Below are positions 6,130 through 23,222 of a DNA stretch of 23,463 bases, in pieces. Positions within the stretch are counted from its first letter, which is position 1. Each line of letters opens with the position of its first letter. The position numbers and the translations under genes are program-made. Location: positions 1-23,463 of the forward strand of contig JBHLNS010000049.1 in NCBI GenBank assembly GCA_048941285.1, read 5' to 3'. The notes beneath the pieces were generated by a model that worked only from the letters and a program-made list of their open reading frames with translations, made no database searches and had not been told where the DNA came from. Source of the DNA: Promethearchaeota archaeon (GTDB taxonomy: Archaea > Asgardarchaeota > Lokiarchaeia > Sigyniarchaeales > SOKP01).

Positions 6130-6176
6130 ATTTATAATTAGATTTCTAAATTTATAATAAGATTGCTTTATAATAA
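6127..6176 (+). repeat. Tandem 20-bp direct repeat carrying TATA-like TTTATAAT
   Basis: TAAATTTATAATTAGATTTC (6127-6146) and TAAATTTATAATAAGATTGC (6147-6166) are 18/20 identical. A third partial copy TTTATAATAA starts at 6167. Confidence 0.7.
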
Positions 6177-6189
6177 TCATAAAATTTTC

Positions 6190-7692
6190 ATGAAATTAAC
6201 TCCCAGATCTATTTATACTGAATTTAAAAAGGGAAATTTGGAAAAACAATCGGCTATAGATCAATTATTTACATTAATAAATAATTTTGACGATCCAAAA
6301 TTACGAATTGAAAGTATTGAAGTTTTAATAAAAATTGGTTCAAAGAATGACCAAGTTTTTAATCTATTTGAAAATCTTTTAATATCTGATTCTCATGAAG
6401 AAGTTAGAAACACAGCAATAAAAGCAATTAGACAAAATTTTATTGAAAAAGCCTTAAAGCCAATGAAATGGGCATTCCAATATGAGTCCTCTATATATTG
6501 TCTTTTATCTATTATCTCCACATTAGGTATGATAAATAACGACAAGGCTAAATCTTTTTTAATTGACAAAATAAAAAATATTGATATTTTTCAATTTACT
6601 AAAAGCCTACAAAATACTTTTAACAATGGGAAAATAAATGTTTTCACAAACATACGGCTTTCAGAAATCCTAAGTAATTACATACTTATTAAATACTTTA
6701 AAAAAGAATTCGATAGCATTAATTACAGCTTAAATGAAGGGTTAGTAATCTCATTAGACTTATCTGGAATCAGTACAAATGTATTTGGATGGAAGATTTT
6801 AAGAAAATTACCTGAATTCATTGCAACTCTTAAATTTCTTCAGAAATTGGATTTAAAAATCAATAGAATTGCGAAATTACCTTCAAGTATTGGCAATCTT
6901 GATTCTCTAACTTATTTAGATATAAGCAATAACAACCTTAAGAGTTTACCTGAATCCTTTGGTTCTCTAAAATCGTTAAAATACTTAGATTTGAAATACA
7001 ATAAAATAAGCGAAATACCAAATACTATTGGAAAATTAAAAGAATTAAACATTCTAGATTTAAGACATAATACTATTAAATCTCTTCCAAATGAAATCTC
7101 GGGTTTGAGTTCATTAGAAATTCTGGATCTACATGGAAATAAATTGAATAACTTACCAGAATCAATGGAAGGATTTAAATCCTTGAAAAGATTAGAATTA
7201 GGTTTAAATAAATTAGAAATTCTCCCTGATTCAATTACTAATCTTAAATCTTTGATGAGTCTGGGTTTAGGAGGGAATAATATTACAGTAAATTTTTCAC
7301 TTCTAAGCAATTTAAGTTCACTTCAAGAATTAAATCTTTATGATAATAATATAAAATGTCTTCCCGATGAAATTGGTTTACTAAATTCTTTAGAAACATT
7401 AATTCTCAGAAATAACAATCTTAAATCCTTGCCAGAGTCATTTAAGAAGATGGATTCTCTCAAGAAGCTAGATTTAAGCTGGAATAATCTTATAAGCCTT
7501 CCAGAATGGATAGATAATCTTTCTTCATTAACAGAATTAAATTTATGGGGAAATAATTTAAGATCTCTTCCTTCTACAATAGGTAATCTCTCATCATTAA
7601 AAGTTCTTAATTTAAACTTCAATAATTACATTAGAAAAATTCCAGAATCTCTAAAAATTTTACAAGACAAAGGATTAAAAATTTACAAATAA
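6190..7692 (+). CDS. HEAT-like repeat plus leucine-rich repeat protein (about 12 LRRs of 23 aa)
   Basis: N-terminal helical repeats (ENLLISDSHEEVRNTA) followed by 12 LxxLxLxxNxLxxLP-type repeats. ATG 6190 (MKLTP) is preferred over TTG 6163 because it aligns with the paralogue start MSLTP at 15834. Confidence 0.88.
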   Translation: MKLTPRSIYTEFKKGNLEKQSAIDQLFTLINNFDDPKLRIESIEVLIKIGSKNDQVFNLFENLLISDSHEEVRNTAIKAIRQNFIEKALKPMKWAFQYESSIYCLLSIISTLGMINNDKAKSFLIDKIKNIDIFQFTKSLQNTFNNGKINVFTNIRLSEILSNYILIKYFKKEFDSINYSLNEGLVISLDLSGISTNVFGWKILRKLPEFIATLKFLQKLDLKINRIAKLPSSIGNLDSLTYLDISNNNLKSLPESFGSLKSLKYLDLKYNKISEIPNTIGKLKELNILDLRHNTIKSLPNEISGLSSLEILDLHGNKLNNLPESMEGFKSLKRLELGLNKLEILPDSITNLKSLMSLGLGGNNITVNFSLLSNLSSLQELNLYDNNIKCLPDEIGLLNSLETLILRNNNLKSLPESFKKMDSLKKLDLSWNNLISLPEWIDNLSSLTELNLWGNNLRSLPSTIGNLSSLKVLNLNFNNYIRKIPESLKILQDKGLKIYK

Positions 7693-9544: not shown

Positions 9545-10465
9545 TTATATTAGTTTTGAGAGTTCTATAAATTTCTTTTGAATTGCTGTTTTTATCTTTG
9601 GATCGACCCCAGAGAAACTATTCGTTGTAAAATTTAGTTTACTCCCTTCTTTTATTGAGAACTGTGCAATTGGACCATCCATTTGTTCAACTGCAAAGCT
9701 TCCATCTGGTTTCTTCGAAATCCAGATATCATCATAATGTTCTAAAATTGCTGAAAAAACAAATGCTATTTTTGCGTCAGTCATTAAACTATCAGTTGAA
9801 ACATTTGCTGCGGGTGCTGGTTTTGCTTCTGTCTTAATTGTTGGCATCGGTTCTGCTAGATCATATTCAGAACCTGCCTCTTTTGTTGTGATAGGTTTAG
9901 CAGGTTTTGAAAGTGGTGCTATAACTTCTGATTTAACTGGTGTTGGGGCAGTAGGAGTTGGTTCTGGTTTTGTTGTAGCTTGTGTTTCTCTTTTTGGTAT
10001 TGGCTTTGGTTCTAATTTTGGCACGGGTTTTGATTCTACCTTTGGTGTTGCTTTTATTGCAGCAATAGGTTTAATTGCTCCCGCTTCAAAAGTAACAATA
10101 TAATTATCTAATTCAGTAAATTTCCTATTTAATATTTCTTGAAGCTCTTCGTTCATTTGTGTGTCTTCTGGAACTTTTCCCACTTTTCGTGCATCAATTT
10201 CTTTAATCCCTTTAATATCTCTCCCAATTATGCTTTTACCAACAACGTACCCATGCCCTTTAAGAGATTCTGCTTGCCTAAGAGCAGTTCTCCGAGCTAC
10301 TAATCCTTGTTTAACACCATGCCATAGAAACAAATTTTCACTACCTTCATCTAAAACTATAATCGAAGTTTCTGGCATAAAACTGTCTTTACTCCATTTA
10401 ATTGGGACAATTTCCCCTCCTGGACGAGCATCGAACATTAATGCATATGAAGCGATCTTGATCAC
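9545..10465 (-). CDS. Gelsolin-like domain protein with Pro/Lys/Thr-rich linker and uncharacterised C-terminal domain
   Basis: SIIVLDEGSENLFLWHG...VARRTALRQAESL matches the gelsolin-repeat pattern (hhLD.G..hahW.G.......A...A..L). Residues ~130-222 are low-complexity (PKVESKPVPKLEPKPIPK, PEPTPTAPTP). Start codon is uncertain (GTG 10465). Confidence 0.72.
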   Translation of the reverse strand: MIKIASYALMFDARPGGEIVPIKWSKDSFMPETSIIVLDEGSENLFLWHGVKQGLVARRTALRQAESLKGHGYVVGKSIIGRDIKGIKEIDARKVGKVPEDTQMNEELQEILNRKFTELDNYIVTFEAGAIKPIAAIKATPKVESKPVPKLEPKPIPKRETQATTKPEPTPTAPTPVKSEVIAPLSKPAKPITTKEAGSEYDLAEPMPTIKTEAKPAPAANVSTDSLMTDAKIAFVFSAILEHYDDIWISKKPDGSFAVEQMDGPIAQFSIKEGSKLNFTTNSFSGVDPKIKTAIQKKFIELSKLI

Positions 10466-11821: not shown

Positions 11822-13015
11822 TTGATAAAAATTTCTAATACCTTTTTCCCTTCAAAGAAAGCGCAAAATGATGTAAAATGTCCATATTGTGGATATGTGA
11901 TATCAAAACCTTTTCCGAAGGACAGTTTATGCCCTAAATGTCAGAAATTTTTAGCAAATCTATTTGATTTAACAACTGGTAAGGATGAAAAACCCCAACC
12001 AAAAGAATTTAAGACAAAAACAAGTACTTTGTCTTCAAAATTGGGTACAAAAGCATCAGTTAAGGAACAGCCTTTAATTATCAATTTAGACAGCGATAAA
12101 ATCAAATTGAAGAAAGGAGAATACGTTAAATTGATGGGAATTACATCAATTGAAAGGACACAACTCTACTGTAGTAACAATAATTATAATTATTTATTAG
12201 AATTAACAAATAATCTTGATTTTATAGCTACAGGTATTTTAGATGGAGATCTTGACAAAATGCTTCTTATTTCAGAAAAAAAGGGAAAAAAAGAGAAATG
12301 TCAATTTTATGAAAAAAATGATATCATTTATCTTGTTTATGGAAGATTTCCTGATAAGAAAGGTAAATGGATTCTTAAACAAATGTCAAATCATTTTTCT
12401 GAATTACTACAAGGTAAGGATCCAGACACATTAGATAAATTTGAGAAATATCAAATTGGCATGGAATTTAAAAGACGAACCAAGTTTATATTACAACAAT
12501 ATGTTAAATTGCAAGAGATATTTACAGACCAAGAAATTCCATATGTGGAAGATTCCATAAGAATTGATTATCTTGGACTATCTTCTATGTCCATTGGAGT
12601 GATTTCACTTCTTCTAGGGGAAGAAAACTTAAAGTTTGATACATTAAGCAAATTCGAAGATCCAGATGAAGAAAAAGAAATGAAAGAATCAATGCTTACT
12701 GCAAAAATCGAAGCTATTGCTGCTAATACTCAAGGGAATACGGGTGCTACACCGCGATGGATTGCTGTAAAATTAGGCTTTCAAAAATATCGATTTTTGA
12801 CATTCAAGAAATATCAAAATGATTACTTTCTTTCAATGCTCTCAGAGGGAAATTTAGAAAAACTAAATCAAGTAGAAAAATTATTAAGCCCAAAAATAAG
12901 TGAGATAACATCAAATATATTTACAGGAAATTTAAAACCATTTAATGAGCTGAAAGTTGAATTAGTACAGAAATTCAATCATAGACGAAAATTTCCTCCA
13001 TTTGAATTCAATTAG
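11822..13015 (+). CDS. Zn-ribbon (CPYC...CPKC) protein with two predicted longin-like domains
   Basis: Long ORF with a C4 zinc motif at 11879-11941. Two ~130-aa segments show a beta-beta-alpha-beta-beta-beta-alpha-alpha hydrophobic pattern. The fold call is inference and the TTG start is uncertain. Confidence 0.6.
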   Translation: MIKISNTFFPSKKAQNDVKCPYCGYVISKPFPKDSLCPKCQKFLANLFDLTTGKDEKPQPKEFKTKTSTLSSKLGTKASVKEQPLIINLDSDKIKLKKGEYVKLMGITSIERTQLYCSNNNYNYLLELTNNLDFIATGILDGDLDKMLLISEKKGKKEKCQFYEKNDIIYLVYGRFPDKKGKWILKQMSNHFSELLQGKDPDTLDKFEKYQIGMEFKRRTKFILQQYVKLQEIFTDQEIPYVEDSIRIDYLGLSSMSIGVISLLLGEENLKFDTLSKFEDPDEEKEMKESMLTAKIEAIAANTQGNTGATPRWIAVKLGFQKYRFLTFKKYQNDYFLSMLSEGNLEKLNQVEKLLSPKISEITSNIFTGNLKPFNELKVELVQKFNHRRKFPPFEFN

Positions 13016-15833: not shown

Positions 15834-16799
15834 ATGAGTTTAACTCCTGATGAGATATATGAAGATCTTAGGAAGAGTAAAATAAATAAAAATACTGCTT
15901 ATGATTTATTAACTTCTTTAATTGAAATTAGTGAAAATGAAAATATACGCTTAAACGCTATTACAAATTTAGAAAAAATCGAGATAATTAGTGATGAGCT
16001 ATTCAGTTTTTTAGAAAATTTACTTATTTCTGATTCAAATAGTAAGATTAGAAAAGCTGCAACTAAATTTTTAAAACATAAATTCCTTAAAAAAGCAATA
16101 AATCCATTAAAATGGGCTATGCAAAATGAAACAGATTTTGAATGCTTGGTCACAATCGTTCAATCATTAGAAAAAATTAATACAGATCAATCAAAGTCGA
16201 TTTTAATCAACGAACTCAAAAAAATATTAACAACTAAATATCTCAATAAAGAAAAAAGAATTAAAAACAAGAAATTTAAAAAAATAATTAAGAAATTTAT
16301 AAAAACGAAGAAAGTAACAGAATTTACCCACACAGAATTAGCAGAAATCTTAATTAATTATTTATCAGTCAATCATCTAATAGATCAGTTTCCTAATGTA
16401 TATTATGAAATAAACCCACAAAATGGATTAATTGAAGAACTAGATTTATCAGATTATCTAGAATATGAAGTTAAAGGTACTCCTTTTGGATGGAAAAATA
16501 ACATTCAATCAATTTCCGAAATTAGAGGTTTAAAATATTTAAAATACTTGAAAAAAATTGATCTTTCAAATAATAATATTGAAAATGTTAAGCAATTACC
16601 CAATTTAAAAGACTTAACGCATTTAATTTTAACTAATAATAATATCAGTGAAATTGAAAATTTAAACTATATTAAGAGCTTGCCACATCTTGAATACCTA
16701 GATCTAAGGGGCAATGAACTTGGAAAGAAAATTAGTATTAAAGAATTTGATCCTAAAATAAAGGTTCTTTTAAAAGAGTCGTATTTAAAAATAAAATAA
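15834..16799 (+). CDS. HEAT-like repeat plus short LRR protein (paralogue of 6190..7692)
   Basis: First ~130 aa are colinear with 6190..7692 (LTP..IY, ENLLISDS, P.KWA). Three clear LRRs: LKKIDLSNNNI, LTHLILTNNNI and LEYLDLRGNEL. Confidence 0.85.
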   Translation: MSLTPDEIYEDLRKSKINKNTAYDLLTSLIEISENENIRLNAITNLEKIEIISDELFSFLENLLISDSNSKIRKAATKFLKHKFLKKAINPLKWAMQNETDFECLVTIVQSLEKINTDQSKSILINELKKILTTKYLNKEKRIKNKKFKKIIKKFIKTKKVTEFTHTELAEILINYLSVNHLIDQFPNVYYEINPQNGLIEELDLSDYLEYEVKGTPFGWKNNIQSISEIRGLKYLKYLKKIDLSNNNIENVKQLPNLKDLTHLILTNNNISEIENLNYIKSLPHLEYLDLRGNELGKKISIKEFDPKIKVLLKESYLKIK

Positions 16800-16814: not shown

Positions 16815-18146
16815 TTATTCAATTAGCTGTGTTTTTCCAGAACCCCAAATACCGAGGGCTACTCCCAATTCTTTTTTCTCTTTTGCAACATCTCTTACGT
16901 TTTTGCCTTCCATTACAGCATCTATAGCTTGTCTAAATGCTTTAGCACCAGCAATTGGGCCATCAGGATGGCTATGAATCCCACCACCACTACCAATAAG
17001 AATATCTTTACCCGCTTCTTTTATGCACTTCTCAACCATTCCCTGCGTAATTCCTCCGGAAGGCATTGGTAATGTGGGTTTAATATGTTGAAGTGGATAC
17101 CGAAGTGCTTTAAGATTCTGCTCATATCTTTCTTCAAGAATTTCTGCTTTTCCGTAAGGTGCAGGGATTACTACTGTATCCGCTCCACAAATACGGGGTA
17201 ACTTAGCAAAGGTTAACATGCTTGTCATACCAGTCCATTCTCCTCCAAAATATGTACCACCAAAGTCCATGTGTCCCAGAATTGGAACTTTAATTGAAGG
17301 GTCCTCTGCTATTTGCCTTAACGCTTCATAACCAGTAGCTAAATAATTTATCATTAAAGCATTTGCTCCTAATTCTATCATCTTGTCTGCGTATTCAAAC
17401 ATTTCTGGGAATTTTGTAGTGATATTAATTGTGTATAAAGTTTTTTCTCCTTTTTCTGAATCTGCTCTATCTACAGCTTCCATAACTTTGACAATCCTAT
17501 CTTCAAGAGTATTAAAAGAGGGATTGGAAATAAGCTCATCATCTTTTACTACATCACATCCTCCAACTGCTGCTTTATAAACTAAATCAGCTGCAACTTC
17601 AGCAGTATGACCTGTACATGGCTTTACCATATTATTTAAAAGGGGGCGTTCAGGAATATTCATTAATTTTCGAATACCATCAATACCAAATTTTGGGCCT
17701 TTAAAATCTTCTAACCATAATTTAGGAAATGCTAAATCAACTAGTTTTAATCCGTGGGTAATACTAATATTTCCGATAACTGTCGTAAAAAGCATTGGGA
17801 TTCCCATACCCTTAATATTTATTACTGGAAACCCAATTTGTACAAAGTATGTTCTATCTTTTATATCTTTTGGAATATAATATTCATACATTGGGATTTC
17901 ATAAACACCTAGCACTCTTGCGACATGATATTTTCTAACCTCTGCAGTTTCAGCAGGAACTCTAACCCACGTTCCAGTAGATTGTTCAATCGCTGCAAAC
18001 CGAGACAAATAATTAACATTTTGCCCTTTAGGACGTTTAATAATATATGATGCAATGATATATTTTTCCAAATCGATACCATCTAACCCAGCCGCTTCTG
18101 GAACATCAAAATACTGTTCACAAGAAGGAAAAGAGTCTTCTTCCAT
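16815..18146 (-). CDS. RuBisCO-like protein (form IV RLP)
   Basis: EQSTGTW, IGN, GPKFG, VKPCTG, GGCDVVKDDE, YGK, PSGG and GGGIHSHPDG. Equivalents of K177, R295 and H327 are substituted. ATG 18146 is preferred because the GTG at 18155 belongs to the SD-like GTGAT. Confidence 0.92.
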   Translation of the reverse strand: MEEDSFPSCEQYFDVPEAAGLDGIDLEKYIIASYIIKRPKGQNVNYLSRFAAIEQSTGTWVRVPAETAEVRKYHVARVLGVYEIPMYEYYIPKDIKDRTYFVQIGFPVINIKGMGIPMLFTTVIGNISITHGLKLVDLAFPKLWLEDFKGPKFGIDGIRKLMNIPERPLLNNMVKPCTGHTAEVAADLVYKAAVGGCDVVKDDELISNPSFNTLEDRIVKVMEAVDRADSEKGEKTLYTINITTKFPEMFEYADKMIELGANALMINYLATGYEALRQIAEDPSIKVPILGHMDFGGTYFGGEWTGMTSMLTFAKLPRICGADTVVIPAPYGKAEILEERYEQNLKALRYPLQHIKPTLPMPSGGITQGMVEKCIKEAGKDILIGSGGGIHSHPDGPIAGAKAFRQAIDAVMEGKNVRDVAKEKKELGVALGIWGSGKTQLIE

Positions 18147-18221
18147 CTTAATCACTTTTTAATTTAAGTTAAGTATAGTTTTATTAAGTAGTACTATTTT
18201 TGAGAATTCAAAAATTTTGTG

Positions 18222-18248
18222 AAAAAAAAAAGTAAAGAAAAAAATAAA
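18222..18248 (-). terminator. Oligo-T terminator candidate after the longin/wHTH gene
   Basis: The minus strand has T7 and T10 runs within 35 nt of the stop at 18256. Confidence 0.55.
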
Positions 18249-18255
18249 GTAGTTG

Positions 18256-19371
18256 TTAAACTTTAGCTTTTGCTTCAGCTTTAGCAGCGGTTCTAATATC
18301 TGAATAAGAATTTTCTAAAACCGTAAGATATTCAACTAAAACTTGATTAGCTTTTGATTTCTGGTCATATACTTTCTTAATAATGTTTAGGAGATATTTT
18401 GGAAATATTAATTCGAAATGAAAATCTGAAAGTAAAGCATAATATTCATTATTCCTTTCGTCTTGGAAAACTTGAATCATTTGAGTATCCCATAGCATCT
18501 TCAAAACCTCATCAAGATCATCAACACCTTTCTTTCTTAACTTCTCAAGATCATTTTTGGTAACTATTGCTGTTCTTAATAATCTCAATGTTTCATATAC
18601 TTGTGGATTAATAAGAATATCAATAATTCTGAGATTATCTCCTTCAGTTGGTCGATAATTTTGAAAGAACTTTTTAACTTCAACTCTATATTTGTCTACA
18701 AGTTGAGAAGGTAGACCACGACTGACTGGGTCATCCAACATTTTAACAGGAGGTACTCTTAAAGCAATAACATCTTGTATCAAAAATATAAGCTCTGAAG
18801 GCATACCTTTAACAGACGTCTCCTTGACGATTTCACGCTTAACAAGTTCAATCAAAACTCCTTCTAAATCTACGAAGCCTTGTTTATATTGGTCCTTTAA
18901 CCACACCATCAATTCTGACTTAGAAACTACTCCTTCATCTCGTAAACGATTAAGGATCATCCGTTTAATCTCATCTTGATATGTGATTGCAAGTCTTTGT
19001 TCGTTATTTAGTGTGGGATAAACAGAAAGTCTTCTGAAGAGATTAGGAATCATTGACTCATATGCATCATCTTTCAAATTCTGTAAAATAATCCGTGAAA
19101 TCTCTATTAATCCCCCTTCGTAAGAATCAGGATCATCATCAAGACTCAGGAGTAGAAGAATATAGAATCCTTTATCAGGCCCAGTATAGTATGAAGCAAT
19201 GTTTAGAGAACCTATCATTAAACTAATCATCCCAGATTCTCCACTATACTCATGAGTGCTATATACTTGCATCAATGTTTTATCACTAACATTAATTTCA
19301 TCAGGGTATTTTGCTAGAATGTCAGTCCCAACTCTTTCATCCCATCTCATAACTACTAATCCTACTGGCAT
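18256..19371 (-). CDS. uDENN/longin-like plus tandem winged-helix protein (NPRL2-like architecture)
   Basis: N-terminal GLVVMRWDERVGTDILAKYP resembles the hhh.FD...GP.h...P start of DENN/NPR2 longin domains. Two wHTH-like segments follow: ILNRLRDEGVVSKSEL...VLIELVKREIV and TLRLLRTAIVTKNDL...VLKMLWDTQMI. SD GGAGGTG and TAATG overlap with the upstream gene. The ORF is certain; the fold is inferred. Confidence 0.65.
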   Translation of the reverse strand: MPVGLVVMRWDERVGTDILAKYPDEINVSDKTLMQVYSTHEYSGESGMISLMIGSLNIASYYTGPDKGFYILLLLSLDDDPDSYEGGLIEISRIILQNLKDDAYESMIPNLFRRLSVYPTLNNEQRLAITYQDEIKRMILNRLRDEGVVSKSELMVWLKDQYKQGFVDLEGVLIELVKREIVKETSVKGMPSELIFLIQDVIALRVPPVKMLDDPVSRGLPSQLVDKYRVEVKKFFQNYRPTEGDNLRIIDILINPQVYETLRLLRTAIVTKNDLEKLRKKGVDDLDEVLKMLWDTQMIQVFQDERNNEYYALLSDFHFELIFPKYLLNIIKKVYDQKSKANQVLVEYLTVLENSYSDIRTAAKAEAKAKV

Positions 19372-22300
19372 TAATTAGCACCTCCTTTGAATTCTTCTTT
19401 TATTTCAGGTAACTTCTTTGATTTCTTACCTTTTACATCCATTATATCATCTAATGATAATCCAATTGCTTCCCATTTTTCTCCAAGTTTTTTCACAATA
19501 TATTCTTCTTTTGTTGGGTATAAAAGAGAGTCTGAAATAGACCTTTTTCCTTTTATATTTTTCTTAATTTCTCTTGCTTTTTTTACAAAACTTGGAATTC
19601 TTGCTCTTTGAATGGTACGATAAGCGATTAAACTACCTGCTACTGCAATCACAGCTCCCACAATCATCAAAAAATAGAATAAGGGAAATCCAAAAATTTC
19701 TTGCATTTTAACTACGACTGTAATGCTAGTTGATGAGGTAGAAAAATATTGTTTCTCGATATTTAATGTAGCAGTAAATGTTTGAGGCATAAAGAATGCT
19801 TCAGCTATCACTGTTCTCTCAATTGCATAGATTCCATTACCAGTATGATTAAAAAAAATATCTTTACCTTGTATGGTTAAATATACATTTGCTCCTCTTA
19901 CTGGGGCATTAGGAACTGTATCGTTATTTGGATCAGTGAGAGTTATTGCAAAATCTAACGCTGCTCCCGAAGCGATTAATATTTTAGAATCTATAAAAGG
20001 AGGTTCAGGTAAAGTGATTTCAAAAACTCTTTTCATAATGGTTAAGGATATAATAGCAATACTATGATCCCAATTCATTTTATCTAATGTTACAATTATT
20101 GAATATTCTCCATCTTGCCGTCTTTCCGTATTAAGGTCTAAGATAAATTCATTAGTATCTTCTACGAGAGATCCTGTTTCAGAAGTTCCGGGAATTGGAT
20201 CACCATTTTCATCTAATTGTTGTAAAAGATAACTCATCTCATCTAAGTTTGAAATAGAAGTGCCTCTCATCTCATCTATATAATTAAATGTGAAGTTCAA
20301 TTCTTTAAAAATATAGATATTTTGAGAGATATACAAAATTCCATCTTCCCCGTTAATAGTAGTTGGCCTTGATAAAATGTTAATATAAAATCCAAAATTA
20401 TCTATTTTAGTATAATTCTCGAGCCCTGCCGTAAACTCAATGCGATATTTTCCAACATTAGTTGCTGCTGAAGTGTCAATCTCAACTGTATAATATCCAG
20501 GATTTAATGGGTCAGGATCTAGTGTACCAGAGCCATAATCCCAATCATATCTAAATATATCCGCAATTATTGGATCATTCGTAATGAAATCATAATATCT
20601 GACAGTTATATTAATCAATTCATCATAAAATTGAGAGACTTCATTGGTAGGCAATTCATCTGGCATTGATAAATAATCATGAAAACTCATACCACTAGCC
20701 ATTGATTCTATGGATATCACAAATAATACATCTTCAGGGCTATTATAGTAAGACTTTATGCCAGAGATGGTAACAATATATGATTTGCCATAATAACCTG
20801 CTGAGAATCGATTTGAATTGATCTCAATAGTAAATATTCCATTTGTAGTATACAACATGTCTTTTTGATATACTAATGGGTTTCCGATTGCAGTACTTTT
20901 AATTATACAAGTAATTTTTGTACCAACACCATCATCATCTACCCATGGACCAAGAAGTCCATTATCAGATGTAATATATTTTATCGAAAATGTCATATTT
21001 TGACCGTAAACTACATCATAATCCGCAACAAGACTTCCATTTTGAAATTGAGATAATCTATTCTGGTAGTTTAAATCTAATTCAAATACTAAAGAAGATG
21101 CTGAATATAAAGTATATGAGTAATTATTTAAAATCTTATTTGGATCATATGCTTGATCTGAATAATTCACCCGGAAAGTTCGTTGTTCAGTCACCACCCA
21201 AAGGGAAAAATTATAATTAATTTTTCTTTTAAACCAAAATCCAAGATCACTATTAATTAAACCATAAGCAGTACCATTATCATCAGTTTTAAGGTCTACG
21301 ATATGTTCGGATGTTCCGCTTTCTTCAACTCTTACAGTAATACCCTCTACAGGTACAGTTTCAGTGTCATCAATGACACGTATATCCAATTTAGACATAC
21401 TTGTTCTCACATATTCAAGATAAATCCCTGGACCTGTATACGTAATGGTACTGGAGTTTAAACGAGTTGGATAATCCGTGTAATCAACATTATCAAAATA
21501 TACAGTGTAGTTATAACTGAGCTGATCTATCCATCTAAAAGTTGCTTCTCCAGCAGAATCTAATGCTAGAGTTTCCAATACTTTAATTGTGGAATTTCCC
21601 ACTTCTACATAACCATAATCAAATGAATCTCCGTCCCAATCATCTACTTCGAAATCTATTGTCCAAAGATCAGCAACAACCTCCACTGAAACAATTAAAC
21701 CCTTAAATTCTACTTCACCAGGAGGTTGAATTCTGCTATCATAAACTACAGCTTCATATAAACCAGATTGTAAAGTATAATTTACCGAGATGTTATAAAA
21801 TCCAAATGGGACTTTTGTAAAAGATACAATTCCATCTGACAACGTAAAATCAGTATAGGGACTTCCATCCTTTTCTAAGATATGTGTAGAATTTTTCCAT
21901 AGAGATACTTCCGCACCTGGAACTAATCGGTCATCAATATCCTTTACTATAATAGTCACTGCAGCTGCTCGTTCTGTAATAGGTAATAAATTGGTATTAA
22001 TATTATAATAATTTGCCAACCATTCAATCTCATCAGGCGCAACAGCATATTCAAAATATCTTATTTCATCGATATTACCATCATAATAATAATTATTTCT
22101 ATTCCCATTTTCTGCTGTAGCTTCAGATCCATCACCAAAGAATCCCCATCTGTCAGTACCAGTACCGAAAGCTCTTCCTCCCATAGCATTTGTCCAAACG
22201 TCTGCAGGATAATTATCTACATAAATGTATTTATCAATACCATCATAAACAACACAAGCAAAATGCCAAGCATTATCATTCAGGCCCGAAATGCTGCCAA

Positions 22301-23222
22301 AAAAATCATTTTGTCCAGTATATCCAGTAGCTGAACTAGCAAAGCCTATCCTTCCATTTCCAGTTATGAAAAAATTGAAATATTCTGATCTATCAAAATC
22401 AAAAAATGCCCAGTTATCCCAATTTCCACTACTTGCAAATGAAGTTTTAAACCAACAGCTAACAGTTACAGCTGATATTTCATTTGGTTCTGTGTAATGT
22501 AAAGCATCCTCTATATAAACAAAATCATTGGAACCATCAAAGTTTAGAGAAAAATCTCCGACCGCGCTATCGGTATCATAATCAGGATAATAACTACTAC
22601 TTGTTCCATAAAGATGACCATCAGCATAATCTAACGAATCCTCAACAATGGAGTTATACCCTCCAGATCCTTCTTCAAACTGCCACCAAGAGGTTCCAGA
22701 AGGATCGTAATTAACATGCTTACTCCCACGATGATTAATCGATGTATTTCCCCAGTACATATAAGTATCATAATCAGATTCGCCCGCATTAATACTATTT
22801 TCAAACCATATAGTTGCAAGTCCAATACTCGGAAAGTCTTTCTTTACATAGTAATTTCTTACAACATTATTTTCTACTATTCTAACATCGTACAAGTTGG
22901 GATCCATATTATAATTGTCTCTTAAGGTTGTGTAATCAAACTGAATACTTAGGAAGTTATCAGTTAAATTATAACCTCCAGGATTACTAATATTTATACA
23001 CTGACGCCACTGAAATGATACATTCCACCAAGGATCCTCACCTATTGGAGCATTTAATAATGGTTTTATAAATGTCGATTCATTATCTTTTTCTTCTTTT
23101 TCATCTAATTGTCTTAAATTTGAAATATTGGAAGGGAATATCGTCAAAATCGAACCCAGTGAAAGAATCAATAAAATGGTTACCATAATTCCCTTTTTTG
23201 TTTTCATTTTTAGTCTATTCAT
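19371..23222 (-). CDS. Large single-pass cell-surface glycoprotein: signal/anchor, DUF2341-like, LamG/ConA-like, Ig/transthyretin-like repeats, C-terminal TM and cytoplasmic tail
   Basis: KTKK plus hydrophobic N-terminus. WWN..F.WR..I...YMYWGN is DUF2341-like. WWQFEEGSG, SLNFDGSNDFV, TVSCWFKT, WHFACVVYDG and GNIDEIRYF are LamG-like. VPGAEVSL and VEGITVRV...TDDNG mark beta-sandwich repeats. TM FPLFYFLMIVGAVIAVAGSLIAY is followed by an 82-aa basic tail. About 20 N-x-S/T sequons. Alternative ATG at 23207. Confidence 0.85.
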   Translation of the reverse strand: MNRLKMKTKKGIMVTILLILSLGSILTIFPSNISNLRQLDEKEEKDNESTFIKPLLNAPIGEDPWWNVSFQWRQCINISNPGGYNLTDNFLSIQFDYTTLRDNYNMDPNLYDVRIVENNVVRNYYVKKDFPSIGLATIWFENSINAGESDYDTYMYWGNTSINHRGSKHVNYDPSGTSWWQFEEGSGGYNSIVEDSLDYADGHLYGTSSSYYPDYDTDSAVGDFSLNFDGSNDFVYIEDALHYTEPNEISAVTVSCWFKTSFASSGNWDNWAFFDFDRSEYFNFFITGNGRIGFASSATGYTGQNDFFGSISGLNDNAWHFACVVYDGIDKYIYVDNYPADVWTNAMGGRAFGTGTDRWGFFGDGSEATAENGNRNNYYYDGNIDEIRYFEYAVAPDEIEWLANYYNINTNLLPITERAAAVTIIVKDIDDRLVPGAEVSLWKNSTHILEKDGSPYTDFTLSDGIVSFTKVPFGFYNISVNYTLQSGLYEAVVYDSRIQPPGEVEFKGLIVSVEVVADLWTIDFEVDDWDGDSFDYGYVEVGNSTIKVLETLALDSAGEATFRWIDQLSYNYTVYFDNVDYTDYPTRLNSSTITYTGPGIYLEYVRTSMSKLDIRVIDDTETVPVEGITVRVEESGTSEHIVDLKTDDNGTAYGLINSDLGFWFKRKINYNFSLWVVTEQRTFRVNYSDQAYDPNKILNNYSYTLYSASSLVFELDLNYQNRLSQFQNGSLVADYDVVYGQNMTFSIKYITSDNGLLGPWVDDDGVGTKITCIIKSTAIGNPLVYQKDMLYTTNGIFTIEINSNRFSAGYYGKSYIVTISGIKSYYNSPEDVLFVISIESMASGMSFHDYLSMPDELPTNEVSQFYDELINITVRYYDFITNDPIIADIFRYDWDYGSGTLDPDPLNPGYYTVEIDTSAATNVGKYRIEFTAGLENYTKIDNFGFYINILSRPTTINGEDGILYISQNIYIFKELNFTFNYIDEMRGTSISNLDEMSYLLQQLDENGDPIPGTSETGSLVEDTNEFILDLNTERRQDGEYSIIVTLDKMNWDHSIAIISLTIMKRVFEITLPEPPFIDSKILIASGAALDFAITLTDPNNDTVPNAPVRGANVYLTIQGKDIFFNHTGNGIYAIERTVIAEAFFMPQTFTATLNIEKQYFSTSSTSITVVVKMQEIFGFPLFYFLMIVGAVIAVAGSLIAYRTIQRARIPSFVKKAREIKKNIKGKRSISDSLLYPTKEEYIVKKLGEKWEAIGLSLDDIMDVKGKKSKKLPEIKEEFKGGAN

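Follow-up and report, generated by a model that had tools for sequence, protein, structure and literature searches.

A Translationally Coupled Surface Protein and Putative NPRL2-Like Adaptor in a Promethearchaeota Archaeon: A Candidate Transmembrane Module

Introduction

A stretch of 23,463 nucleotides (nt) from a Promethearchaeota archaeon of the Loki type (assembly GCA_048941285.1, contig JBHLNS010000049.1, positions 1-23,463; hereafter "the window") carries a tight two-gene unit, in which the gene of a single-pass surface protein of 1283 amino acids (aa) and receptor-like layout (P0002) is followed and overlapped by the gene of a soluble 371-aa protein (P0001, the adaptor). Related genomes repeat this pairing with a constant cytoplasmic tail and a variable outer part, and many paralogues carry both products as one polypeptide. 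An earlier reading of the window, made from its letters without database searches (the sequence-only reading), had taken the pair for a transmembrane signaling module, in which the tail of the first protein would recruit a longin-type second protein and thereby link adhesion or glycan sensing to small-GTPase or membrane-remodeling machinery. The observation as a whole is confirmed, and that interpretation is partly supported. The best explanation of the whole, to which we attribute about an even chance of being correct, is a receptor-plus-adaptor unit whose NPRL2/3-like adaptor would serve as a platform for a neighboring Arf-like GTPase.

Asgard genomes encode dozens of small GTPases together with longin and roadblock proteins; according to the text of Tran et al., the GTPases of MK-D1 cannot be paired with their regulators from genome layout (PMC10933270). 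The module described here presents a defined trio, formed by the tail of a surface protein, an NPRL2-like adaptor and a neighboring Arf-like GTPase. If true, the archaea most closely related to eukaryotes would possess a connection from the cell's outside to its inside, assembled from components that serve nutrient and trafficking signaling in eukaryotes, and the module may explain the "complex surface proteins" which the text of another report describes as seen on Lokiarchaeum cells (PMC9834061). Sampled genomes and loci are given G and L numbers, respectively, G000 being the window's own genome and C83 its own contig.

The Two-Gene Unit and Its Junction

Both open reading frames (ORFs), the TAATG overlap between stop and start codons, the GGAGGTG embedded in the last codons of the P0002 gene and the T tract closing the pair (Table 1) agree in coordinates and sequence with what had been described from the letters alone. 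The view of a tight two-gene unit holds as well, on the overlap and the GGAGGTG in the window and on the same type of junction across relatives. Among 44 junction rows, which include 7 duplicate loci, a 1-nt overlap is found in 25, a gap of 0-2 nt in 14 and one of 14-17 nt in two, while one is fused and two are unscored. A GGAGG-like site stands 5' of nearly all 44 rows, and the coupling of TAATG/Shine-Dalgarno (SD) type is retained in pairs ranging from 29% to 100% identity. The stop/start coupling of the pair exceeds chance. As a separate observation, the adaptor start codon at the overlap is neither ATG, GTG nor TTG in three orthologous junctions (ATT in L007 and L009, ACG in L019), which suggests near-cognate re-initiation or sequencing error.

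The hydropathy profile of P0002 contains two hydrophobic segments, at residues 10-31 and 1175-1202, the last of which therefore leaves a tail of 82 aa (residues 1202-1283), in agreement with the single C-terminal transmembrane (TM) helix and long tail proposed earlier. The lectin-like domain matches Laminin_G_3 with 40.2 bits against a cut-off of 27.6, and residues 178-404 match the S-layer domain protein 4qvs_A of the PDB (E 7.4e-9). Of the ectodomain domains that the sequence-only reading had named, LamG is thus retained, whereas DUF2341 (14.2 bits against 23.4) and the beta-sandwich families fall under the Pfam cut-offs, as do the scores of Big_1 and CarboxypepD_reg; the Pfam scan of the ectodomain yielded no FG-GAP repeats. 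The ectodomain contains 23 N-x-S/T sequons, compared with 13.9 ± 3.2 in shuffled sequences, the tail none and P0001 one. The first 35 residues of the tail are basic, with a net charge of +9 in the window's protein and of +7.5 in the comparison with the adaptor family. Glycan sensing and adhesion, as the role of P0002, are guesses.

Table 1. Features of the two-gene unit in the window (aa, amino acids; ORF, open reading frame)
Feature	Positions	Strand	Basis or detail
P0002 gene, receptor-like single-pass surface protein	19371..23222	-	ORF, 1283 aa
N-terminal hydrophobic segment of P0002, residues 10-31, likely signal or anchor (putative signal role)	23130..23195	-	19-aa hydropathy windows of 2.1-2.45
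LamG/concanavalin-A-like lectin domain of P0002, residues 230-399	22026..22535	-	Pfam Laminin_G_3, E 5e-10
Single C-terminal transmembrane helix of P0002, residues about 1178-1200	19623..19691	-	Hydropathy 2.0-2.5
Basic cytoplasmic tail of P0002, 82 aa, with juxtamembrane R-I-P-x-F-V-K-K and W-x2-[IL]-G-L	19374..19619	-	Alignments
Shine-Dalgarno-like GGAGGTG in the last codons of the P0002 gene	19379..19385	-	7 nt before the ATG of P0001
TAATG stop/start overlap, translational coupling	19369..19373	-	TAA 19373-19371 and ATG 19371-19369, base 19371 common to both
P0001 gene, soluble adaptor, N-domain plus two winged-helix-like units	18256..19371	-	ORF, 371 aa
N-domain of P0001, residues 1-120, putatively longin-like	19012..19371	-	Motif counts, crude secondary structure, fusions
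W10-D11-x3-G15 motif in the N-domain	19327-19344	-	Column counts
First winged-helix-like unit of P0001, residues about 130-205	18757..18984	-	Weak eWH_GTF3C1 match, E 0.057, residues 136-163
Second winged-helix-like unit of P0001, residues about 245-320	18412..18639	-	Family profile against PDB 1uly_A (PH1932), E 4e-4, residues 248-313
T-rich run 3' of the second stop codon, likely archaeal terminator (putative function)	18211..18250 (about)	-	Sequence

A Constant Tail and a Variable Ectodomain

The tail profile detected 12 sites in four genomes, all 12 situated directly upstream of an adaptor-family member or fused to one, and the tail also precedes the adaptor in 20/20 same-genus orthologues. 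Beyond the genus, other families of the same order contributed 20 loci. In 13 of them, with adaptors of 29-55% identity, the directly adjacent gene encodes a protein of 1109-2598 aa whose one TM helix lies 105-180 aa from the end (among these partners, L027 and L031 end at contig edges at 731 and 419 aa). The remaining loci comprise two with a three-TM protein of 134-145 aa, one cut by a contig end and four initially without partner; among the latter, L037 has a single-pass partner with K-F-P-x2-V-R, and L038 a TM protein without the tail. Three closed genomes hold 10 strong full-length adaptor matches; nine are accompanied by a partner, and the tenth is truncated.

The outer parts of these partners are heterogeneous. 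Among 11 large partner proteins scanned, FG-GAP was found in four (L021, L023, L024, and L029) and LamG in the partner of L022; those of L025, L026, L035, and L036 gave only Ig-like or CarboxypepD_reg-like matches, that of L030 no Pfam family, and that of L028 weak matches to InlK_D3, PilS, DUF5970, and I-set, none of them passing. Alignable throughout the partners are the domain next to the membrane, the TM helix and two motifs, [RK]-[IV]-P-x-[FIL]-[VI]-[KR] and, later, W-x2-[LI]-[DG]-[LI]. The tail motif picked out in the sequence-only reading is real, with P9 and W49, which correspond to P1210 and W1250 of P0002, invariant in 22/22 aligned tails. Between G000 and G006, the syntenic locus has an adaptor 90% identical and a tail 76% identical, versus 14-43% per 100-aa window in the ectodomain; between G000 and G003, the adaptor is 94% identical and everything else 72-87%. 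Furthermore, mini-partners from four genomes (L017, L019, L033, and L034), 134-145 aa long, possess 2-3 TM helices plus the tail, have no ectodomain, and are still coupled to the adaptor. The expectation set beforehand, that a TM protein with the same tail would always lie upstream while its ectodomain varies, was borne out by the 12 tail sites and by the contrast of identities with G006.

Outside the window's order, a single-pass Ig-like protein with a juxtamembrane K-Y-P-K-I-I-R-K motif precedes the adaptor at L057 (G041, a 1.4-Mb genome of another Asgard family), and surface-protein coupling may therefore predate that order. The evolutionary origin of the coupling was also addressed with a maximum-likelihood tree of 35 members, in which a branch with support 94/97 separates the 20 rows with a tail-bearing partner from the rest. 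These rows all come from the window's order and the group is defined by the feature itself; besides, TM partners with a related motif occur at L037 and L057, outside the group, and on these grounds the idea of a single origin of the coupling was set aside as not shown.

Natural Fusions of Tail and Adaptor

In nine of the best 150 library representatives, the adaptor domain forms the C-terminal end of a longer protein (588-2548 aa, in some cases cut), and many paralogues are found in open frames of 2000-3000 aa, with the match starting at query residue 2. In the window's own genome, a gene on contig C61 has a product of 2661 aa, in which a signal-like segment is followed by a TM helix (residue 2185), then the tail and a full adaptor; a second fused copy is cut by the contig end. 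The tail profile gives E-values of 2e-20 and 9e-19 for fused tails and 8e-20 for the unfused one; fused tails match it as well as unfused ones do, so that the tail must do more than tether the adaptor. That the pair acts as one unit, as first supposed, is supported by the existence of these natural fusions. The fused form has also been found in series: contig C9 of G238 (430352-464784) contains five tandem fused receptor-adaptor genes, with frames of ~2655-2678 aa at a spacing of ~8.3 kb.

The Adaptor Family and Its Domains

With a maximum 19-aa hydropathy of 1.54, P0001 has no segment above that mean value, in line with the soluble product expected. Its relatives number 780 at E <= 0.001 among 5688 candidates, and the matches listed (120 of the 780) are 76-94% identical, come from Asgard bins and are unnamed or "hypothetical." An exhaustive search of a library of 1.84 billion representatives gave 354 clusters (50% identity) at E <= 0.001, 110 of them at E <= 1e-30. 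The family is present in 41/41 related genomes, with 3-14 matches each, and in 223/301 Asgard genomes sampled across the phylum; it covers families f1 (68/68), f11 (76/76), and f16 (19/19), and is rare in f9 (4/28) and f26 (1/21) and at 0/5 in f20. The own genome holds four close copies (the window, one on C43, two on C61), and divergent or partial ones on C30, C63, C66, and C94. These proteins are acidic, with a mean net charge of -10.6, of -8.8 for the N-domain, and a mean isoelectric point (pI) of 5.4, the winged-helix domains being neutral to acidic.

The most conserved N-domain columns are W10 (51/56 members), D11 (43/56, plus 7 with N), G15 (52/56), and P23 (55/56), and R13 occurs in 30/56, with K in 8 others. 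A crude Chou-Fasman profile of the 56 sequences yields the succession b-b-a-b-b-b-a-a, where b stands for strand and a for helix; after it come two units rich in helix, both closing with a hairpin. The same type of N-domain is located N-terminally in a Gtr1_RagA GTPase (family profile E 2.7e-11; Pfam Gtr1_RagA E 1.3e-17) and in a TackOD1 output-domain protein (profile E 5.3e-27; Pfam TackOD1 E 4.9e-32), and one N-domain paralogue bears a TrmB winged helix-turn-helix (wHTH; E 6.9e-10). From the motif, the crude secondary structure and the Gtr1_RagA and TackOD1 fusions we infer that the N-domain is probably longin-like. In the adaptor-family proteins scanned, Pfam NPR2 had no match at E up to 1 or 5; Pfam Longin (PF13774) had no match anywhere, its control being likewise silent, and the ESM Atlas returned sub-threshold leads only, including one cluster in which 19% of the members carry NPR2 (score 0.81).

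Regarding the C-terminal part, a relative matches HTH_20 at 143-159, within the first putative winged-helix unit, and the crude secondary structure is compatible with such a unit. HTH_20, HTH_5, and TFIIE_alpha were each found in 5/56 members, with best E-values of 2.5e-4 to 5.4e-4, and for each of the wHTH families HTH_20, HTH_5, TrmB, and MarR the members matched number between 1 and 5 out of 56.

An N-domain-only paralogue of 125 aa with W-D-x3-G-P is encoded on C66 of the own genome (G000, 103770-104147; L102), with a Ser/Thr kinase fragment nearby. The matches listed for it (120 of 324) are 81-94% identical, a near-identical family without Pfam labels, and it is a candidate second longin subunit, as is the longin extension of the GTPase described below. 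Apart from this family, the last two homologue searches yielded nothing but fragments.

Small GTPases Around the Unit

Ten full-length adaptor members from five genomes of other Asgard families were examined for GTPase neighbors. At L051, L053, and L065, which belong to three different families, the gene immediately downstream specifies a ~283-aa protein, in which a 125-aa extension is joined to a GTPase domain of the Arf family (Pfam Arf, E 1.7e-23, 7e-24, and 1.8e-19); at L051 and L053 it is followed by the gene of a coiled-coil protein (106-110 aa), and at L056 a divergent GTPase gene stands beside the adaptor member. One paralogue of the GTPase extension passes the cut-off of the longin-type Clat_adaptor_s family, with 23.2 bits. 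The best homologues of this GTPase in the own genome are C43:41686-42735, convergent with the C43 pair, and C61:22657-24360, just downstream of the fusion gene, and the adaptor copy on C30 has an Arf gene ~1 kb away. The same genome has 18 Robl_LC7 matches beside its 84 Arf-type ones, a very dense repertoire of GTPases and roadblock proteins.

The window's contig, C83, ends 241 nt upstream of the P0002 gene. The gene order in G003 is module 1, module 2, an opposite-strand gene of a 345-aa GTPase, the orthologues of P0002 and P0001, and a RuBisCO-like gene, and G006 has the same divergent GTPase/operon layout. In the own genome, the end of C43 carries the gene of a 349-aa longin-plus-Arf-like GTPase (region 41686-43014), and the ends of C43 and C83 are collinear on the G003 spacer, with 8 nt in common. 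The window operon is therefore most likely the divergent neighbor of the C43 GTPase gene, and the assembly probably broke inside a three-module array. Among 23 congeners with an orthologue of the window unit, the GTPase orthologue (at least 76% identity) lies on the same contig at ~1-6 kb in 16 and on another contig in three; tally and distances were taken by hand from match coordinates, the GTPase gene being upstream in all 16 and its orientation checked in two congeners (G003 and G006). The genomic tie to small GTPases anticipated by the sequence-only reading is thus found, both in the adjacent Arf-type genes and in the Gtr1_RagA fusion of the N-domain type.

Proposed Mechanism and Alternatives

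We propose that the two genes encode one membrane-spanning unit. P0002 would be an N-glycosylated single-pass surface protein, with an outer LamG domain and beta-sandwich stalk free to vary and a TM helix and basic tail that stay constant. P0001 would be made in 1:1 coupling with P0002 and would most likely be seated at the membrane's inner face, on that tail, a docking for which the charge complementarity between an acidic adaptor and a basic juxtamembrane tail can be counted. Its putative longin-like N-domain, with W-D-x3-G, would precede two winged-helix-like units, and the whole would most likely act as a docking or regulatory platform for the divergent longin-plus-Arf-like GTPase, be it as a GTPase-activating protein (GAP), as an exchange factor for guanine nucleotides (GEF) or as an effector site. 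Such a unit may connect surface events, presumably the binding of some external ligand, with the GTPase switch, or the switch may control the receptor.

A number of results weigh against this receptor-plus-adaptor reading. Regarding the adaptor, P16 (the P of the "GP" motif) is found in 6/56 members only, and no conserved Arg precedes strand 5 (positions 65-68) in the 56 members. The N-domain was blank in Pfam for 1+56+30+22 proteins (including 30 divergent or short relatives and 22 N-domain-only pieces), in NCBIfam, and in PDB sequence searches with the sequence and two profiles; hhalign gave P 0.14 for the N-domain against the longin extension of the GTPase and P 0.12 against roadblock proteins, no better than the negative controls. 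Pfam NPR2 (PF06218) had no match in the own genome and 121 Asgard genomes, where its control was likewise silent. Regarding the GTPase, no such gene lies within the window, the joining of the two contigs rests on collinearity and an 8-nt overlap, 4/23 congeners have no close GTPase orthologue, and synteny within one genus is non-independent evidence. In the stretches fetched, a GTPase was present only at L035 among L021-L036 and only at L017 among the genus loci. Finally, the own genome has 84 Arf Pfam matches in 3.55 Mb, one per 42 kb, which puts the chance of meeting an Arf gene within ±5 kb at about 0.24; at this density, little can be concluded from adjacency by itself.

The adaptor could instead be a structural anchor or biogenesis factor with no GTPase role, escorting or anchoring the surface protein in its insertion, sorting, clustering or attachment to cytoskeleton or ESCRT, the GTPase neighbor being a by-product of gene density; we consider this possible, though on the unlikely side. 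Density would be a sufficient reason for a neighbor in a genome with 84 Arf-type genes, and most partner loci sampled outside the genus have no GTPase in the stretch fetched, but the same GTPase subfamily directly downstream in three distant Asgard families and a GTPase position kept in 16/23 congeners argue against a mere by-product. In the same manner, 1:1 coupling and fusions suit a stoichiometric structural partner, and a tail equally kept in fused and unfused forms (2e-20 and 9e-19 vs. 8e-20) suggests a structural unit, whereas the covalent fusion of the N-domain type to a RagA-type GTPase and the conservation of the W-D-x3-G motif speak against a purely structural role.

A far-reaching extension of the receptor-plus-adaptor reading, which we hold to be clearly unlikely, would make the module a eukaryotic-style path from receptor to GTPase: an NPRL/C9orf72-type longin, held on the constant tail of variable surface lectins or adhesins, and the longin extension of the GTPase would form a heterodimer that switches the GTPase, and GATOR1, FLCN-FNIP and C9orf72-SMCR8 would descend from a receptor-tethered unit of this kind.

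It is quite improbable that P0001 is a membrane-tethered transcription factor, whose winged helices would bind DNA and which the surface protein would hold or release on an outside signal in the manner of ToxR or of anti-sigma systems. Both putative recognition helices carry a negative net charge (-1.2 and -1.0), with conservation limited to hydrophobic positions, in winged-helix domains that are themselves neutral to acidic in a family of mean pI 5.4, even though the second winged helix resembles DNA-binding wHTH domains (PH1932, E 4e-4; HTH_20, HTH_5, TrmB, MarR) and an N-domain paralogue carries a clear TrmB wHTH (E 6.9e-10). Moreover, a domain that forms a permanent part of proteins as long as 2661 aa would be fixed at the membrane, and the winged helices of NPRL2/3 are, to our knowledge, not known as DNA binders. 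Lastly, chance neighborhood or shared transcription with no functional link is hardly credible for a pairing that holds for 12/12 tails in four genomes and across paralogues of 29-55% identity, survives the loss of the ectodomain in the mini-partners, and is covalent in many fusions.

Other Genes of the Window

Directly downstream of the operon, a RuBisCO large-subunit-like gene occupies 16815-18155 of the reverse strand, and G003 has a 446-aa ORF at the same position. Two forward-strand genes (6163-7692 and 15834-16799) encode HEAT-plus-leucine-rich-repeat proteins (LRR_14, E 9.5e-55; LRR_4, E 4.7e-11), and the products of 9545-10465 (reverse strand, 306 aa) and 11822-13015 (forward strand, 397 aa) match no Pfam family at E <= 1e-4.

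Comparison With Known Systems

Plexins are single-pass receptors with a cytoplasmic GAP domain of RasGAP fold. The module of the window is similar in its Ig- or lectin-like ectodomain, its one TM helix and its hypothetical cytoplasmic regulator of a small GTPase, which in the fused paralogues would be part of a single polypeptide; unlike plexins, to which it has no homology, it has a GAP function only as a hypothesis.

The closest eukaryotic parallel in the order of parts is given by NPRL2 and NPRL3, subunits of GATOR1, the GAP complex of RagA/B. The adaptor shares with them two winged-helix units at the C-terminus (the first suggested by weak matches and crude secondary structure) and a tie to Rag/Arf-type GTPases, here through gene neighborhood and fusion; its putative longin-like domain would likewise occupy the N-terminus. 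Unlike NPRL2/NPRL3, it gives no Pfam NPR2 match and no conserved arginine finger was located in it, and, unlike in GATOR1, there is no DEPDC5-like partner. We know of no coupling or fusion of NPRL2/3 to the tail of a surface protein, as is present in the adaptor. In the text of the source consulted, NPRL2/NPRL3 are described with an N-terminal longin domain and two or more winged HTH repeats, and the ligand of these winged helices is left open (PMC3747258). As for C9orf72, of the C9orf72-SMCR8-WDR41 Arf GAP, residues W33, D34, and G38 appear in the text of another report as essential or conserved in longin GAPs (PMC12290439), and the W-D-x3-G of the adaptor has the same spacing, at the end of the first predicted strand. 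Unlike C9orf72, the adaptor family has the GP-motif proline in 6/56 members only, and the adaptor's C-terminal part is winged-helix-like, not DENN; this match of three residues could be convergent or due to chance.

In MglB-MglA and in SR-alpha(SRX)-SR-beta, a roadblock or longin protein is, according to the texts of two sources, encoded with or bound to an Arf-/Ras-like GTPase at the membrane (PMC3747258, PMC10933270); unlike the adaptor module, these pairs include neither a giant surface receptor nor winged-helix repeats. Within Asgard archaea, the text of Liu et al. (10.1101/2020.10.19.343400) describes "NPRL2-like longin domain" proteins that are multicopy and fused to two-component output domains and Rag-like GTPases, and that of Tran et al. 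(2024, PMC10933270) reports longin-GTPase fusions, as well as MK-D1 GTPase genes that are generally not in operons with longin genes. The adaptor resembles the former proteins by its architecture, as its type of N-domain is also found on TackOD1 and Gtr1_RagA proteins. It differs from the proteins of both papers, whose texts, with figures and supplements outside the comparison, mention no surface-protein coupling; similarly, a literature search, figures and supplements likewise outside it, retrieved no account in which this adaptor is coupled to a surface protein. The module of the window is a variant of what is already known from Asgard archaea, namely NPRL2-like longin proteins and modules of longin and GTPase.

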